Source: a virus
Strand: one strand, 5' to 3'
DNA length: 64,000 nt
Virus record (IMG/VR): IMGVR_UViG_3300045988_173726
Location: 1 to 64,000 of that record
Shown: positions 1 to 61,971 of the stretch, one piece after another
Position numbering within the stretch: the first letter of the stretch is position 1
How the letters are laid out: the number at the start of each line of letters is the position of its first letter
Notes under the pieces: generated by a model
Told to the model about the DNA's origin: nothing
Seen by the model: the letters and a program-made list of their open reading frames with translations, nothing else
Databases searched by the model: none
Translations under genes and position numbers: made by a program

Positions 1-1
1 G

Positions 2-1060
2 TTAGAGCGAAAGATTAAATATCTTGAGAGTACAGTTATTCCTAAGTTAGTTGAGAAAAGGAATCAGAATTCAACTAAGCTTCAAGACGGAGTATACGTT
101 TCGTTGGTTCAACAAAGGAATCTAAGGTTAAGAGTAGTTGCAAAGAGGGCAAAACTAAACAGGCTAAAGCAGAGGCTTAGTAGCCTAAAGTACCAATTAA
201 AGACTGGAAAACTAAAACTGTGTTTTGGTACTAAGAGGTTGCTCAAGCAAGACTATAAGAAGTTTATTGAGCAACGAGATAGTCAAATGACTTTCATAGG
301 GGCTAGAGAGGAGACAGCATGTAATCAAGTTTTACAGTTGACTTACAATCGAAGAAGCAATCAGTTTTCGATTCGACTGCGTAAGGATTTTGGAGGATAC
401 AAGTCGGCTAAAGGTGACGATAGGTATGCTTATGGTAAAGTTTATTTCAATCATCACAAGGCACAAATCGTTTCAATTTTGAGATATAAGACTAGTCCTT
501 TATCTTATAGAATAATCAAAAGGAATGGGAGGTATTATCTCTACTGTACTTTTGAGTTTCAAGTGGAAAATGGTGATATAGTTACTCGTTCTTCTTATGG
601 GACGATAGGACTAGATTTTAACAAAGGTTTTGTGACCTTATCAGAGACGAATCAGTACGGTAATTTAGTAAAAACAAGGTTAATACCATATCGTTTTAAG
701 TCTGGATGTAAGACAAAAACAGACTTACAGGAGGTAGCAAATTATGCAGTTGGGTTAGCATTGAGGAGAGGTAAGGATGTTTGTATTGAGAATCTTGATT
801 TTAGAGCTACAAAAGCAAAAACAGAAACAAGGCTAGGAAGGAAATACAACGAGATGCTTCATTCATTAGCCTATCGGGAGTTTAGTAGTGCGCTGGAGAG
901 TGTAGCGTATAGAAACAGGGTTTGTTTAATCAAAGTCAAGCCAGCGTGGACATCTTGGTTAGCAGAGAAGATTTACTGTAAACCTATGAAGTTAAATATT
1001 CATGTAGGAGCTTCATATGTGATAGCAAGGCGTGGACAAGGGTATAAAGAAGTCGTGTAA
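2..1060 (+). CDS. TnpB-like (IS200/IS605 OrfB-type) protein, copy 1, 5' end cut by the window edge
   Basis: The frame is open from nt 2; LERKIKYLESTVIPKLVEKR aligns to about residue 92 onward of the 443-aa copy. Motifs in order: GLDFNKGFVTLSE (RuvC-I-like), CIENLDFR (RuvC-II-like), KPAWTSW (TnpB xPxYTSQ-like). There is no Asp after ENLDF and no CxxC pairs. Confidence 0.8.
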   Translation, partial: LERKIKYLESTVIPKLVEKRNQNSTKLQDGVYVSLVQQRNLRLRVVAKRAKLNRLKQRLSSLKYQLKTGKLKLCFGTKRLLKQDYKKFIEQRDSQMTFIGAREETACNQVLQLTYNRRSNQFSIRLRKDFGGYKSAKGDDRYAYGKVYFNHHKAQIVSILRYKTSPLSYRIIKRNGRYYLYCTFEFQVENGDIVTRSSYGTIGLDFNKGFVTLSETNQYGNLVKTRLIPYRFKSGCKTKTDLQEVANYAVGLALRRGKDVCIENLDFRATKAKTETRLGRKYNEMLHSLAYREFSSALESVAYRNRVCLIKVKPAWTSWLAEKIYCKPMKLNIHVGASYVIARRGQGYKEVV

Positions 1061-1287
1061 AGTCTTTAATAACAGTCCTATATAGATGTATTCAACGCAA
1101 GACAGTTGAGCATCTCCCTGTAGGACGGAGTTTACTAGAAATTCTGACAATAATTTTCATTGTGTGGCTACGGTTGAAATGAGATGAGTTAGGATGGAAT
1201 AGGTTAACCGTAAGACCTTGAGTTGAAAAACTCTAAAATTGAGCTAGAGATGCGAATTTCTTAAAGTTCGCATTTTCTAGTTACGGT
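1061..1287 (+). ncRNA. omega-RNA-like conserved 3' tail of element copy 1
   Basis: About 230 nt are conserved in all three copies. Shared hairpins are GATGTATTCAAC-GCAAGACA-GTTGAGCATC and GAGTT-loop-AACTC, plus a terminal hairpin ATGCGAA/TTCGCAT (1250-1273) followed by TTTTC. Conservation ends at 1287. The RNA start is unknown and may overlap the CDS. Confidence 0.55.
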
Positions 1288-1472
1288 TAACGATTGATTT
1301 AACTGCGGTAAGGCGTGTAAGCGAGGTAGTTATTGAAGATGGGATTTATTTTGGGGGCGGGAAGTTTCCGAAGTTAACGAGGGTTAGGATTCTTGGAGTT
1401 ACGGATAAGCAACTTCGTGGGATTACGTTTCCGAGCGGTTGTGAGATAGGAGGGGGCAGTGAAGGTAGATAA
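1281..1472 (+). pseudogene. C-terminal remnant of an array LRR paralog severed by element copy 1
   Basis: The frame after the element reads LTIDLTAVRRVSEVVIEDGIYFGGGKFPKLTRVRILGVTDKQLRGITFPSGCEIGGGSEGR*. This matches paralog C-termini (LTIDARY...FPNLVELTLIG...KVPKGCKV). The stop at 1470-1472 overlaps the next gene's GTG start, as elsewhere in the array. Confidence 0.7.
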
Positions 1473-35894: not shown

Positions 35895-37094
35895 ATGGTC
35901 TATAGATTTAGCGAGATGCTTGGCGATGAGGTTTATAAGAATCGGGTGATATTCCTGTTAGGGGAGCATTCGTTCTTTAATAACATAGTCATTGACAGAG
36001 TTAGGGACATTGCGATTCCGAGGGAAGAGGTAAATGCAGAGCAAGTTCTGGATTTAATGTCGGAGTTCGGTGTAACTTCGGATAAAGAGGTTTCTCGCGG
36101 AAACAGTGTAGGGTTTGATGAGTTTCTGGACAGTACGAGTAGCTATCCGATGCGAGGTTTCTGGTATTGTAGCGTAGAGTATTCAGAGCTAACGGATAAA
36201 CAGAGGGAGCGGCTTGGTGTTTATATGAAGTCACCGCAGGAGACTGGGTATCTGGTTATAACGGTCAAGGACTTTCGGAAGCATAGGGAAATTCTTCGTA
36301 ATAATCTGGTAGCTAGGGGTTCGAGCGTTTGTGCGGTGCGACTTAGCTTTCCAGATAGAGCGTCATTAACAGAGATAGTCAAGGGGAAGCTAAGTGACGG
36401 CGGGGTTAAAGTAGACGAGAGAGGCATACAGCTATTTATTTTGCGCTTAAGTAACGCTTATAACGAGTATAGTGACTGCCTATCATCTATTATCACAATG
36501 TATTCTGGGAAGAGCATCGGGTATGGAGAGGTGCTTGATGCGTTACAGGGGACAGAGAATTACGCGGTAGATGATTTTGTTTATGCTTTGTTAAATCCGA
36601 TGGGAAGCGGAAAGGTTATAAAGCGCAGGAAGATATATCGGATTTACGGGAGCTTGATACAGAGTATGAGCGCGGAGAGGCTTCTTAATACGCTGTTAAA
36701 TAAGATTGACATTTTTATTTCGTTTCGTAGGCTTATCAACAACGGAGATTTGCCCGTGTCTGTAGCGTATAGCGCAACAGAAGTGCAGGATAAGCTTCCA
36801 GAGGATAGCCGTCTAAAGACATATAGTGCCTATGTGTTTAAGCGTATGGCACGGATAGCGTCTATGGCATCTCTTGGGGACTGGCTCAATATGCGGCTAA
36901 TGCTTAGTGAGGCAAAGAGGTCGGGGAAGATAGGGCTTGAGGATAGGTGTGAGAAGGCGCTGTTTTCCATGATGCATCGTAGCGTGCTTGGGGACGAGCG
37001 GTTTTTTAATGATTCGGGGTTTATAAGCACTGTGGGGGATGGTGAGCTTTATAGCCTAAATACGGTATTCTTTCGAGTAACTAGCAGTTTCTAA
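35895..37094 (+). CDS. Possible DNA polymerase III delta (HolA)-like clamp-loader subunit; 3' end supplied by the IS left end
   Basis: The N-terminus NRVIFLLGEHSFFNNIVIDRVRDI resembles the HolA N-terminal pattern, and the 399-aa size fits. The family call is weak. The stop at 37092-37094 lies inside element copy 2. Confidence 0.3.
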   Translation: MVYRFSEMLGDEVYKNRVIFLLGEHSFFNNIVIDRVRDIAIPREEVNAEQVLDLMSEFGVTSDKEVSRGNSVGFDEFLDSTSSYPMRGFWYCSVEYSELTDKQRERLGVYMKSPQETGYLVITVKDFRKHREILRNNLVARGSSVCAVRLSFPDRASLTEIVKGKLSDGGVKVDERGIQLFILRLSNAYNEYSDCLSSIITMYSGKSIGYGEVLDALQGTENYAVDDFVYALLNPMGSGKVIKRRKIYRIYGSLIQSMSAERLLNTLLNKIDIFISFRRLINNGDLPVSVAYSATEVQDKLPEDSRLKTYSAYVFKRMARIASMASLGDWLNMRLMLSEAKRSGKIGLEDRCEKALFSMMHRSVLGDERFFNDSGFISTVGDGELYSLNTVFFRVTSSF

Positions 37095-37173
37095 CAATGT
37101 AGAAGAAGCAGGAATTATTTTTCGATTTTCTATGTGTTAGTTAAGGTTTTCATTAGGAGCGTGGTGAGTTGTA

Positions 37174-38505
37174 ATGCAGAAACTAAAGTTGACTATAGTA
37201 GCACAGCTACACGAGTGGAGTAACCGATGTTTAATTGAATATATGGAAGCTTCTCGTAGAGATTACGGTAAAGCATTGCGAGAAGCTTTCTACGCAATAA
37301 AACGAGGAGGAATAGATAAGTCAAAGTACAACACATACCTCCAGTATAAATACGGAATTTCTAATCGAACTGCAAATTCTATCATTCTTGACGCTCAAGG
37401 ACGATTTAACGCCCTAAAGGAGTTAAAGGAGTATGAAAGGAAGCAGTTAGAAAGAAAAATTAAGTATCTTGAAAACACAGTCATTCCTAAGTTAGTTGAG
37501 AAAAGGAAGCAGAACTCAATTAAGCTTCAAGACGGAGTATCTGTTTCGTTGGTTCAACAACGGAATCTACGGTTAAGAGTAGTTTCAAAGAAGGCTAAAC
37601 TAAACAGGTTGAAGCAGAAGCTTGCGGTGTTAAAGTATCAATTAGAAACAGGAAGGTTAAAGCTTTGTTTTGGAACGACAAGGTTGCTCAAGCAAGACCA
37701 TGATAAGTTTATTGAACATCGAGATAGTCAAATGACTTTCATAGGAGATAAAGAGAAAACAGCATGTAATCAAGTTTTACAGTTGACCTACAATCGAAGA
37801 AGCAATCAGTTTTTGATTCGACTGCGAAAAGATTTCGGAGGATACAAGTCTGCTAAAGGTGACAATAGATATGCTTACGGTAGAGCTTATTTCAATCATC
37901 ATAAGGCACAGCTTGTTTCAATTTTAAGGTTTAAGACCAGTCCTCTATCTTATAGGATAATCAAGAGGAATGGCAGATATTACCTATATTGTGTATTTGA
38001 GTTTCAAGTAAGGGATGGCGATGTAGTTACTCGTTCTTCTTATGGAACTATTGGATTAGATTTTAACAAAGGTTTTGTGACCTTATCAGAGACGAATCAG
38101 TACGGACATTTAGTAAAGACACAGTGTATGCCGTATCGTTTTAAGTCTGGAAACAAGACAAAGACTGACCTACAAGGAGTAGCAAATCATGTAGTTAAGC
38201 TAGCATTGCAGACAGGTAAAGATGTTTGCATAGAAAATTTAGATTTTAGAGTAACGAAATCTAAAACAGAAGCAAAAATGGGAAAGAAGTACAACGATAT
38301 GCTTCATTCTCTAGCATATCGTGAGTTTAGTGACACGATGGAGCGTGTAACTTATAGACACAGAGTAGGATTAAACAAAGTCAACCCTGCATGGACATCA
38401 TGGCTGGCAGAGAAGATTTATTGCAAGCCTATGAAGTTGAATATACATACAGGAGCTTCATATGTAATAGCAAGGTGCGGGCAAGGATATAAGGACGCTG
38501 TGTAA
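37174..38505 (+). CDS. TnpB-like protein, copy 2 (443 aa), lacking RuvC-III Asp and zinc finger
   Basis: Motifs in order: ISNRTANSIILDAQGRFNALKE, YRIIKRNGRYYLYCVFEFQ, GLDFNKGFVTLSE, CIENLDFR, KYNDMLHSLAYREF, VNPAWTSW, then WLAEKIYCKPMKLNIHTGASYVIARCGQGYKDAV. Confidence 0.85.
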   Translation: MQKLKLTIVAQLHEWSNRCLIEYMEASRRDYGKALREAFYAIKRGGIDKSKYNTYLQYKYGISNRTANSIILDAQGRFNALKELKEYERKQLERKIKYLENTVIPKLVEKRKQNSIKLQDGVSVSLVQQRNLRLRVVSKKAKLNRLKQKLAVLKYQLETGRLKLCFGTTRLLKQDHDKFIEHRDSQMTFIGDKEKTACNQVLQLTYNRRSNQFLIRLRKDFGGYKSAKGDNRYAYGRAYFNHHKAQLVSILRFKTSPLSYRIIKRNGRYYLYCVFEFQVRDGDVVTRSSYGTIGLDFNKGFVTLSETNQYGHLVKTQCMPYRFKSGNKTKTDLQGVANHVVKLALQTGKDVCIENLDFRVTKSKTEAKMGKKYNDMLHSLAYREFSDTMERVTYRHRVGLNKVNPAWTSWLAEKIYCKPMKLNIHTGASYVIARCGQGYKDAV

Positions 38506-38743
38506 AGAGTGTTTCAAAGATAGCCTTATCCTATATAGATGTATCAACGCAAGACAGTTGAGCATCTCCCTGTAGGATGAAGTTTAATAGAAGCTCTGAC
38601 AACAATTCTTATTGTGTGGCTACGGTCGAAATGAGATGAGTTAGGGTGGAATAGGTTAACCGTAAGACCTTGAGTTGTAAAACTCTAAAATTGAGCTAGA
38701 GATGTGAATTTCCTAATTTATTTTCTCATTTTCTAGTTACGGT
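38506..38743 (+). ncRNA. omega-RNA-like conserved 3' tail of element copy 2
   Basis: Hairpins at 38538-38566, 38672-38685 and 38702-38729. AACCGTAA (38658-38665) is complementary to both CTACGGT (38620-38626) and the terminal TTACGGTT (38737-38744). Confidence 0.55.
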
Positions 38744-38826
38744 TTGAGCTAGCAGAGCTTCCGAAAGATGTAGTTGTTTATCGGGATGGAGTTCGTGTGG
38801 ACGATAAAGTGCTTACGTTTCAGTAA
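38737..38826 (+). pseudogene. Displaced 3' end of the HolA-like gene (candidate)
   Basis: An open frame runs from just after the element's TAG to TAA at 38824-38826. Deleting 37087-38743 joins the 35895 ORF in frame to IELAELPKDVVVYRDGVRVDDKVLTFQ*. It ends 11 nt before the next ATG. Confidence 0.4.
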
Positions 38827-60296: not shown

Positions 60297-60412
60297 TTGG
60301 TAAGTCAGTGGTTTCAAACAATATAGAAGAAAGTTGAAATAATTCTCGATTTACATGTTTTTCATTAAGGATGGTTTTGTTAGGATATGTCGTATTGTGG
60401 AGAGGAATTGAA

Positions 60413-61744
60413 ATGTGTAGTAGAAAGTTTACAGTAGTGACTCAACTACATGAGAGGAATAACAGGGGTGTAATTGAATACATTGAATCTTCCCGTAGAG
60501 ATTACGGGAAAGCAATGCGAGAGACTTTCTATGCAATCAAGCGTGGTGGTTTCAATAAGTCACGGTATAAGACCTATCTTCAAAATAAATACAAAATTGT
60601 TAGTCGGACTGCTAATTCTATTGTTTTTGACGCACAAGGGCGCTTTAATGCTCTAAAGGAGTTGAAAGAGTATGAGAGGAAGCAGCTGGAACAGAAGATT
60701 AAACACCTTGAAGATATAGTCATTCCTAAGTTAGTGGAGAAAAGGAATCAGAATTCAATTAAACTTCAAGACGGATTATCTGTCTCGTTGATTCAACAAA
60801 GGAATCTAAGATTAAAGGTGGTATCAAAGAAAGCAAAGTTAAACAGGTTGAAGCAGAAACTAGCCACACTAGAGTACCAATTAAAATCTGGAAAATTAAA
60901 CATTTGTTTTGGTACGAAAAGACTGCTCAAGCGAAGTTACAAGAAGTTTAGCGAGCAAAGAGATAGTCAAATGAGTTTTGTAGGAGCTAGGGCGGAGACA
61001 GCATGTAACCAAGTTTTACAGTTGACTTACAATCGAAGGAGTAATCAGTTTTTGATTCGGTTGCGTAAAGATTTTGGAGGGTACAAGTCTGCTAAAGGTG
61101 ATGCTAGATACGCTTACGGAAAAGTTTATTTCAATTATCATAAAGCACAAATTGTCTCAATTTTGAGGTCTAAGGCTAGTCCTTTAAGCTACAGAATAAT
61201 CAAAAAGAATTCCAGATATTATCTCTGTTGTGCTTTCGAGTTTCAAGTAGATAACGGTGAAGTTGTTACTCGCTCTAGCTACGGAACTGTTGGATTAGAT
61301 TTTAACAAAGGTTTTGTGACCTTATCAGAGACTAATCAGTACGGACATTTAGTGCAAACACAGTTTATGCCTTATCGTTTCAAGTCTGGAAACAAGACTA
61401 AGACAGATTTACAGGTGGTATCAAATTATGTGATTAAATTAGCATTGAGAAAAGGTAAAGACGTTTGTATTGAGAATCTTGACTTTAGAGCAAAGAAGTC
61501 TAAGATAGAGGCAAAGGTAGGGAAGAAATACAATGAGATGCTTCATTCATTAGCTTATCAAGAGTTTATTGAGGTGATTGAGAGCGTAGCCTATAGAAAC
61601 AGAGTTGGCTTAAACAAAGTCAATCCTGCGTGGACATCATGGTTAGCAGAGAGGATTTACTGTAATCCCATGAAGCTAAATATACATACAGGGGCTTCAT
61701 ATGTAATAGCAAGGCGTGGACAGGGGTATAAAGACGCGGCGTAA
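60413..61744 (+). CDS. TnpB-like protein, copy 3 (start moved to ATG 60413 to match copy 2)
   Basis: MCSRKFTVVTQLHERNNRGVIEY... aligns with MQKLKLTIVAQLHEWSNRCLIEY... of copy 2. It has the same GLDFNKG, CIENLDFR and NPAWTSW motifs and the C-terminus NIHTGASYVIARRGQGYKDAA. Confidence 0.85.
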   Translation: MCSRKFTVVTQLHERNNRGVIEYIESSRRDYGKAMRETFYAIKRGGFNKSRYKTYLQNKYKIVSRTANSIVFDAQGRFNALKELKEYERKQLEQKIKHLEDIVIPKLVEKRNQNSIKLQDGLSVSLIQQRNLRLKVVSKKAKLNRLKQKLATLEYQLKSGKLNICFGTKRLLKRSYKKFSEQRDSQMSFVGARAETACNQVLQLTYNRRSNQFLIRLRKDFGGYKSAKGDARYAYGKVYFNYHKAQIVSILRSKASPLSYRIIKKNSRYYLCCAFEFQVDNGEVVTRSSYGTVGLDFNKGFVTLSETNQYGHLVQTQFMPYRFKSGNKTKTDLQVVSNYVIKLALRKGKDVCIENLDFRAKKSKIEAKVGKKYNEMLHSLAYQEFIEVIESVAYRNRVGLNKVNPAWTSWLAERIYCNPMKLNIHTGASYVIARRGQGYKDAA

Positions 61745-61971
61745 AGTTTTTAACAGTCCTATACAGATGTATTCAACGCAAGACAGTTGAGCATCTCCCT
61801 TTAGGGCTAAGTTTATTATCAGAAGTTTTGACAACAATTCTCATTGTGTGGCTACGGTCGAAATGAGATGAGTCAGAGTGGAGTAGGTTAACCGTAAGAC
61901 CTTGAGTTGAAAAACTCTAAAATTGAGCTAGAGATGTGGATTTCTTAATTTTCGTGTTTTCTAGTTACGGT
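61745..61971 (+). ncRNA. omega-RNA-like conserved 3' tail of element copy 3
   Basis: It has the same conserved blocks as copies 1 and 2. The terminal hairpin is ATGTGGA/TTCGTGT (61934-61957, several G-U pairs). Confidence 0.5.

Follow-up and report, generated by a model that had tools for sequence, protein, structure and literature searches.

RF03065 RNA tails behind TnpB-like genes of probable IS607-family insertions in a large phage genome

The window analysed here, the 64,000-nucleotide stretch formed by positions 1 to 64,000 of the virus record IMGVR_UViG_3300045988_173726, harbours three co-oriented copies, each of about 1.67 kb, of an element laid out as a left end (LE), a tnpB-like gene, an omega-RNA scaffold and a right end (RE), the open reading frames (ORFs) of the gene ending at 1060 (copy 1, cut by the window start), 38505 and 61744. 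The tail of about 215 nt behind each gene is a structured RNA of the Rfam family RF03065, located on the same strand as the gene and ending exactly at the transposon RE. RF03065, catalogued under the name IS605-orfB-I RNA, is a conserved RNA found 3' of the orfB genes of IS605 and IS607 elements and now understood to be an omega-RNA scaffold of TnpB. An initial annotation of this DNA had proposed such a layout, with the scaffold at the RE and the guide read from the flank, and the proposal is borne out by the full-length RF03065 match, by strand-specific covariation, by the predicted TnpB/Cas12 fold of the protein, by about 100 unrelated flanks after a sharp boundary, and by the recurrence of the flanks at unoccupied sites behind a G-rich motif. 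Each copy is very probably a non-autonomous insertion sequence of the IS607 family, residing in a phage genome of roughly 265 kb. Because RNA family, protein clade and transposon family had each been catalogued before, the finding leaves existing knowledge unchanged and is of modest value; it ties RF03065, named after IS605, to IS607-type elements with an Asp-to-His TnpB clade.

The RNA tail

The window was scanned against Rfam 15, in which the gathering score of RF03065 is 94.2 bits. Exactly three matches at gathering thresholds were obtained, all of them to RF03065 over model positions 1-214, with E-values of about 1e-46, by which chance is excluded:

1075-1290, plus strand: RF03065 match of copy 1, 196.7 bits
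38528-38746, plus strand: RF03065 match of copy 2, 197.0 bits
61756-61974, plus strand: RF03065 match of copy 3, 192.3 bits

The window tails show no structural difference from the family, having the same helices, the invariant GGUUAACCGUA...UUACGG box and the same place downstream of the gene. The hairpins at 38538-38566 and 38672-38685 (GAGTT/AACTC), which had been described as shared by all copies, are both helices of the RF03065 consensus. It had likewise been observed, correctly, that the tail is at least as conserved as the coding sequence (CDS): identity between the copies is 87.7-89.8% from the Rfam start to the RE, versus 80.3-83.2% over the last 1056 nt of the CDS.

Related copies were gathered from three sources, namely IMG/VR viral contigs, a metagenome scan for the invariant core GGTTAACCGTANGACCTT, and genomes; the related loci from the collected contigs and genomes are referred to by L-numbers (L002, L057 and so on). 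The RF03065 RNA was present in every related locus tested, with scores of 140-198 bits, and the 16-base genome scan returned mostly chance matches, the RNA being found in only 6 of the 19 loci tested. For the structure test, the RF03065 structure of Rfam, which is independent of these sequences, was projected onto a MAFFT alignment of 89 distinct copies, and the 3' partners were slid by 1-3 columns as a control. Standard pairs occupied 95.0% of the cells, versus 33-42% with the slid partners, and changes on both sides were seen in 43 of 60 pairs. The covariation score was 0.442, versus 0.06-0.10 for the slid controls, and the observed values were reached by none of 500 shuffles. Pairing was therefore kept in the larger alignment, the outcome on which the initial annotation had made its RNA reading depend. 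In helices 1-6, situated 100-215 nt from the end, 28 of 37 pairs had changed in a compensatory manner and 92-99% of the cells were paired; the terminal hairpin, whose arms had been noted to change together between the window copies, corresponds to an Rfam helix (helix 10) with double changes in all ten of its pairs. In the outer helix, AACCGTA(A)/(T)TACGGT(T), five of six pairs are invariant, so that covariation is uninformative there and conservation is its only support.

Several scaffold pairs are predominantly G-U, and the fold energy is -57.9 kcal/mol on the plus strand (z -2.71) and -36.5 kcal/mol on the minus strand (z -0.31). Strand-specific folding and the G-U pairs therefore indicate a constraint on the plus-strand RNA, in the same sense as the gene. 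One proposal of the initial annotation stood in part: of the two pairings suggested for AACCGTAA, the one with the element terminus is the outer helix of RF03065, whereas the one with CTACGGT (38620-38626) is not a family feature, TACGG being present in that loop in only 24 of the 89 copies, and the alternative fold or pseudoknot built on it was not upheld.

The window copies cease to be homologous past ...TTTCTAGTTACGG (1286, 38742 and 61970). A T follows in each of them and in 78 of the 89 distinct copies, and the base after it is random; the T after CGG can pair with the A before ACCGUA. The boundary placed earlier after ...TTACGGT was thus right to within one base, and the sequences past it are unrelated, as had been claimed: over the next 200 nt of right flank the window copies are 33-42% identical, which is chance level, and about 100 distinct copies show the invariant ...GTTACGG followed by unrelated right flanks.

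The TnpB-like protein

By sequence searches the protein was hardly classified. It was unrecognised by Pfam and PHROGs, the Pfam TnpB models remaining below threshold, and NCBIfam guided_TnpB gave a partial match (residues 327-409, 36 bits versus a cut-off of 100). A phmmer search of the PDB sequences returned coiled-coil noise only, a protein profile compared with the PDB gave only weak Cas12m and Cas12f matches, and a profile comparison with an approximate sequence of ISDra2 TnpB aligned 41 columns only, too few to place H425. A weak sub-threshold Pfam match to DUF7307 (Pam3 gp33-like) was also seen at window positions 37408-37650, corresponding to residues 79-147 in the protein of copy 2; it coincides with the long coiled-coil helices that the model predicts at residues 64-159 and is likely to be an artefact of the coiled coil.

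The TnpB/Cas12 fold, bilobed and with a RuvC (RNase H-like) domain at the C-terminus, is shown by structure prediction. An AlphaFold2 model made on an alignment of 46 representatives (23-79% identity) reached a predicted local distance difference test score (pLDDT) of 92.8 and a predicted template modelling score (pTM) of 0.82, and Foldseek compared it with the PDB with a probability of 1.00 and E-values down to 1e-8 for Cas12k, AsCas12f (template modelling score, TM, 0.46-0.50), Cas12m/Cas12m2, CasX, CasLambda and Fanzor2. Among the same 46 representatives E354 (IExLxF) never varies, and D296 (GxDxN) and H425 (KLNxHxAAAYVIARRGQG) hardly do. Canonical TnpB has DxNAAxNI at the position of H425. 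In place of the canonical RuvC triad Asp-Glu-Asp the protein has D296, E354 and H425, and the CxxC...CxxC zinc finger is absent, since about 15 residues with no cysteine pairs lie between NPAWTS/NPAYTS and H425 in all 46 representatives. From the DSSP string of the model, the motif alignment and the published clade description, H425, at the start of the last helix, appears to occupy the third RuvC position.

Altae-Tran and others described a TnpB clade, RIIIr-4, that has the RuvC-III Asp 'mutated to histidine', lacks the C4 zinc finger and occurs 'specifically represented in viruses' (Altae-Tran et al., 2023, PNAS; PMC10691335). The window protein is like RIIIr-4 in having His for the RuvC-III Asp, in lacking the C4 zinc finger, in being virus-enriched and in keeping the RuvC-I Asp and the RuvC-II Glu; a ribbon-helix-helix (RHH)/MazE-like partner, found in some members of the clade (PMC10691335), is not present in the window elements. 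The protein is assigned to RIIIr-4 as judged by the published feature description and not by tree placement. The describers considered the clade probably active, because the Asp-to-His change is conserved (PMC10691335), and nuclease activity of the His variant is here presumed from conservation as well.

The protein family comprises 4156 matches at 90% clustering and 1329 representative clusters at 50%. Its closest members lie on contigs of 255-275 kb, one of them named Caudoviricetes, and the viral contigs overall measure 140-275 kb. Megablast searches of the element and of 25 kb of the window against the INPHARED phages gave no match, and neither did tblastn of the protein against the same collection; against the PLSDB plasmids, tblastn returned only distant matches (22-27% identity), some annotated as 'TnpB-related protein'.

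The three copies

The coordinates of the copies and of their parts are as follows:

1-1287, plus strand: copy 1, truncated by the window start, with a partial tnpB-like ORF (2-1060), scaffold (1075-1286) and RE; 196.7 bits
1287-1306, plus strand: presumed guide of copy 1, TTAACGATTGATTTAACTGC, with 2 mismatches in L025-L027, behind ...TATAGAGGAG
37077-38743, plus strand: copy 2, whole element of about 1.67 kb, with the shared GT/GG core, LE, tnpB-like gene, scaffold and RE
37077-37173, plus strand: LE of copy 2 (GTAACTAGCAGTTTCTAACAATGTAGAAGAAG...) and 5' leader to the ATG, with no space for tnpA; the same LE occurs in L057 and L124
37174-38505, plus strand: tnpB-like ORF of copy 2, 443 aa, with D296 (GLDFN), E354 (CIENLDF) and H425 (NIHTGASYVIARCG), zinc finger absent
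38528-38742, plus strand: omega-RNA scaffold of copy 2 (RF03065), starting 22 nt past the stop codon and ending at the RE ...GTTACGG
38743-38762, plus strand: presumed guide of copy 2, TTTGAGCTAGCAGAGCTTCC, whose first T may be scaffold or core
60300-61971, plus strand: copy 3, whole element, with ORF 60371/60413-61744 and scaffold 61756-61970; 192.3 bits
61971-61990, plus strand: presumed guide of copy 3, TCGAGGGAAGTAGTGTCGGC, behind ...(A/C)G(A/T/C)G in relatives

When copy 2 was compared with five related phages that lack the element, homology stopped at ...TTCTTTCG(A/G)GT on the left and resumed with TTTGAG... (38743) on the right, each end being uncertain by 1-2 nt because of the GGT at both junctions. 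The copy 2 guide lies inside the 3' remnant of a small ORF. An identical copy 2 is held by L029, and L020 has an element at the same left junction as copy 3. The differences between the ORFs of copies 2 and 3 fall mostly at third codon positions (121, versus 51 and 36 at the other two), and therefore the tnpB-like genes are under purifying selection. In copy 3 an in-frame upstream ATG (60371-60412) would add 14 residues; all relatives begin at the position of the ATG at 60413, and the longer ORF call from 60371 is probably wrong.

Transposon family and junctions

The window copies have no transposase gene and measure about 95 nt from LE to ATG. Eight relatives that share the His-type tnpB and the RF03065 RNA (L055, L057, L073, L082, L097, L124, L128 and L145) possess an ORF just upstream of, or overlapping, tnpB, in which Pfam finds a MerR-type helix-turn-helix (HTH) and a resolvase domain, and which scored 183 and 125 bits against the NCBIfam equivalog NF033518 (transpos_IS607), whose cut-off is 110. 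In the two relatives whose ends were checked, the autonomous 3.0-kb elements L057 and L124, the LE is as in the window copies, reading ...GGGT..AGCA and then GTTTCATTTAATATAGAAGAAG.... An IS607 serine transposase thus accompanies these ends and this RNA in the relatives, which makes the window copies tnpA-less IS607 members and not IS200/IS605 elements; membership of the latter (Y1) family was rejected, the transposase of the relatives being serine and not Y1 and the target motif being G-rich. RF03065 was named for IS605, whereas the window copies and their autonomous relatives go with the serine transposase of IS607.

At the left junction the sequence is ...(A)GGGT followed by AATCAGCA..., or else ...GG(G)T followed by AAT..., and at the right junction it is ...ACGG(T). 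A short G-containing core of the IS607 type is thus common to both junctions and to the target, with no longer duplication, and as GGT is common to both junctions, a crossover at GG reads the same as one at GT. The LE consensus was drawn from 27 copies. The idea that the first 12 or so nt of the LE copy the right flank, raised by 7-mer matches in copy 2, L006 and L007, was discarded, the 27 LEs showing a conserved, indel-prone LE part, GGGT-AAT-CAGCA. A 2.2-kb locus, L041, was considered as an autonomous element and proved to be a decayed copy without a transposase. In L002 the start of the LE is partly duplicated about 24 nt before the LE (GGGTAATCAGCAGTTTCTAACAGT, then GTTTCTAACAATG...), and in L057 (1833-2339) and L124 (9935-10441) an extra 168-aa ORF (MKIISAYPCLGKTT..., with a possible P-loop motif) lies between the IS607 transposase and tnpB.

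A close described counterpart is CboIStron of Clostridium botulinum, an IS607-family element studied by Zedaveinyte and others (bioRxiv 10.1101/2023.11.20.567912). The two have in common a serine transposase (here in the relatives), G-rich junctions of the GG type on either side, a target that is not duplicated outside the core, an omega-RNA that stops at the RE, and a G-rich sequence 5' of the target, which is TGGG in CboIStron. Unlike CboIStron, the window copies have no group I intron and no tnpA, reside in a jumbo-phage replicon, and belong to a set in which many insertions are accompanied by loss of adjacent DNA. Furthermore, CboTnpB needs its RuvC nuclease, the D189A variant being inactive (bioRxiv 10.1101/2023.11.20.567912), whereas the window TnpB has a His-type site and no zinc finger.

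With ISDra2 and other IS200/IS605 elements the general mechanism is assumed to be alike, comprising an RE scaffold, a guide from the flank, cleavage of the empty site in dependence on a transposon-adjacent motif (TAM), and homing or retention. In these elements, however, the transposase is of the Y1 type, the ends are hairpins of single-stranded DNA and the TAM is T-rich. Their omega-RNA overlaps the 3' end of tnpB, whereas the window scaffold lies wholly downstream of the stop codon.

Target sites and presumed guides

Unoccupied targets were examined at 30 insertion sites for which a related contig has no element at the same place, mismatches being counted over positions 2-17. The right-flank sequence recurs at these sites with no mismatch in 12 of the 30 and with one in a further 9, so that 21 of 30 have 0-1. 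Upstream of the recurring flank, G was found at -3 in 26 of the 30, at -2 in 17 (A in 7) and at -1 in 22, the background frequency of G being 22%, and the flank itself begins with T (+1) in 21. The consensus at unoccupied sites is G-R-G followed across the junction by T (G-R-G/T), which suggests a TAM of the G-R-G type. The element's own RE reads C-G-G and differs from it at -3, the best-conserved target position. By comparison, the IS607 transposase TnpA_S depends on a GG core at each end and favours TGGG, the sequence that also serves CboTnpB as TAM (bioRxiv 10.1101/2023.11.20.567912).

The initial annotation had suggested a search for the flanks, and the presumed guides of the window copies recur in related phages at the corresponding element-free loci, 2-3 of the 20 positions being mismatched. 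The copy 2 guide differs by 2-3 bases from the element-free locus in L005 and L015-L019, where it stands behind ...AAGGC(G/A), and that of copy 3 has 2-3 in L012, L020, L022, L024 and L086, and 5 in L021. Elsewhere in the window no second good match of the three guides was found, the best reaching 15 of 20 bases. The possibility that GGTAATCAGCAG is a repeated regulatory site of the phage was rejected, 36 matches having been counted versus 47.6 expected.

Loss of DNA at insertion sites

At twelve insertion sites a comparison was feasible on either side of the element. Only four of them (L002, L093, L096 and L106) are simple insertions; at two others 10-16 bp are absent, and at the remaining six 88-1600 bp of phage DNA are missing. 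At copy 2 the loss amounts to 180-190 bp, the 5' part of a small ORF, and at copy 3 to 486-505 bp, a whole small gene. Flanks that are non-adjacent in element-less relatives, with 10-1600 bp missing, were observed for copies 2 and 3 and for L005, L011, L042, L053, L062, L066 and L086. A shared left junction combined with a different right junction was seen when copy 3 was set against L020/L012 and L096 against L066, both junctions still being target-like.

The loss of adjacent DNA could possibly arise by recombination between two co-oriented copies, by the transposase acting between the RE and a downstream site, or by homing with co-conversion. A more far-reaching reading, improbable on the present evidence, is that the Asp-Glu-His TnpB without a zinc finger would be active as an RNA-guided nuclease or nickase and would cause genes to be replaced between jumbo phages that infect the same cell, with the element's own machinery producing the losses of 88-1600 bp beside the RE. 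If this were true, the fixed left and variable right junctions would be produced by the transposase acting on the RE and a downstream G-R-G/T site, or by nuclease-triggered co-conversion, and each loss event would create a new guide, giving guide turnover without transposition.

Proposed mechanism and alternative explanations

By analogy with ISDra2, a Geobacillus IS605 element and the IS607 element CboIStron, transcription through the RE would produce the scaffold joined to some 16-20 nt of flank, which would serve as a copy-specific guide. The TnpB-RNA complex might then recognise the guide sequence in element-less genomes beside a GRG-type TAM and cut there, and the donor would be spared, its own RE giving CGG, with C at -3 where 26 of 30 targets have G. 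Once cut, the site could recombine with an occupied genome, such as that of a co-infecting phage, and the element would thereby be copied in, or retained after excision by the transposase; a serine transposase supplied in trans could move the element to new G-R-G/T sites via the GG/GT core. T4-like free-standing homing endonuclease genes offer an analogy: they too are selfish nuclease cassettes in a phage genome, and in both cases the allele lacking the cassette would be cut and neighbours co-copied, although recognition here would be by RNA and theirs is by protein.

Several points weigh against this mechanism, of which the weakest link is the catalytic competence of an Asp-Glu-His site without a zinc finger. 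His takes the place of Asp as the third catalytic residue, no zinc finger is present, nuclease-poor relatives (Cas12k and Cas12m) are among the best fold matches, and a literature search found no RIIIr-4 enzyme that had been tested. The guide length of about 16-20 nt and the ends of the RNA are assumptions, the length being taken from other TnpBs. The TAM was derived from diverged comparator genomes and is inseparable from the target preference of the transposase itself, and the sampled unoccupied sites of the window copies show 2-3 mismatches to the 20-nt guide. Finally, no tnpA is seen in the window, and half of the comparable insertions are not simple, which the canonical model does not predict.

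The main rival, itself rather unlikely, is that the RNA-protein complex binds DNA without cutting it, like TldR, Cas12m and Cas12k; in competing phages it might act on the matching site as a block or a regulator, or it might bring in other factors. The replacement of the RuvC-III Asp by His and the lack of a zinc finger across the whole family would suit a binder, as would the presence of Cas12k and Cas12m2 among the best fold matches, and the recruitment of inactivated TnpB lineages for regulation has been documented (PMC10691335). However, D296, E354 and H425 are kept across deep divergence, which fits an altered but working site, as the describers of the clade infer, and the elements are multi-copy and mobile, use as guide whatever flank they adjoin, and have autonomous relatives that keep the transposase. 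Domesticated TnpB regulators of the TldR type consist of an immobile single-copy gene with a fixed, conserved guide at a host promoter and decayed RuvC residues; a regulator of this kind was rejected here, the elements being multi-copy and mobile, with unrelated flank-derived guides and conserved D, E and H.

It is highly improbable that the tail is conserved as double-stranded DNA only, as the RE binding site of the serine transposase, with a functionless RNA. In keeping with such a role, the last 13 or so nt (TTTCTAGTTACGG) and the AACCGTA box are invariant and hence give no covariation signal (helix 7), and about 60 bp of RE suffice for excision of CboIStron (bioRxiv 10.1101/2023.11.20.567912), so that part of the tail serves as DNA. 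Against it stand the compensatory changes in helices 1-6, far from the end, the one-strand specificity of the G-U pairs and of the fold energy, and the curation of RF03065 as a structured RNA, its structure having been revised in Rfam 15 with R-scape support and 14 covarying base pairs added (PMC11701678). The initial annotation had itself raised the objection that only DNA hairpins used for transposition might be conserved, which is inapplicable because the IS607 family moves as double-stranded DNA. In elements that move in this form, DNA hairpins are not expected to be under selection.

An IStron, that is, a group I intron fused to an insertion sequence with the tail as the 3' intron part, has next to no probability: IS607-family IStrons with overlapping omega-RNA and 3' splice site do exist (bioRxiv 10.1101/2023.11.20.567912), and copy 2 lies inside a small-gene remnant, but the window contains no group I intron match at Rfam gathering thresholds, only about 95 nt separate LE and ATG, and for copies 2 and 3 the flanks do not make up contiguous exons, a stretch of 180-505 bp of the gene being absent.

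For the RNA-guided mechanism outlined above, about 100 natural examples of scaffold, guide and target, together with the suggested G-R-G TAM, are enough to design an activity test of this compact 443-aa clade.

Host genome and further observations

The window protein sits on a metagenomic scaffold of 264.6 kb, and the window encodes a phage-type DNA polymerase. All long ORFs of the window (1-64000) are on the plus strand, the GC skew is strongly positive throughout, lying between +0.26 and +0.38 in each 2-kb bin, and the G+C content of the three elements is 0.38-0.41, versus 0.44-0.49 in the surroundings. The related 272-kb contig BNJU01000154.1 has at least 6 copies; these elements thus multiply in human-associated jumbo phages, with 3 copies in a 64-kb window and at least 6 in one 272-kb contig, often with loss of neighbouring genes.

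The RF03065 RNA occurs also in Erysipelotrichaceae metagenome-assembled genomes (MAGs) and in Enterococcus. In Enterococcus cecorum DSM 20682 (L158:608-839) it scores 104 bits, adjoins thrS and has no neighbouring tnpB-like ORF, and may represent either a right-end/omega-RNA remnant left on its own or a free-standing RNA. In an Erysipelotrichaceae MAG (L168:5310-6911) tnpB is present in fragments of 128 and 126 aa, the RNA still scoring 168 bits. On a related phage contig (L007:5669-7975), 11 tRNA genes lie within 2.3 kb, close to one element.

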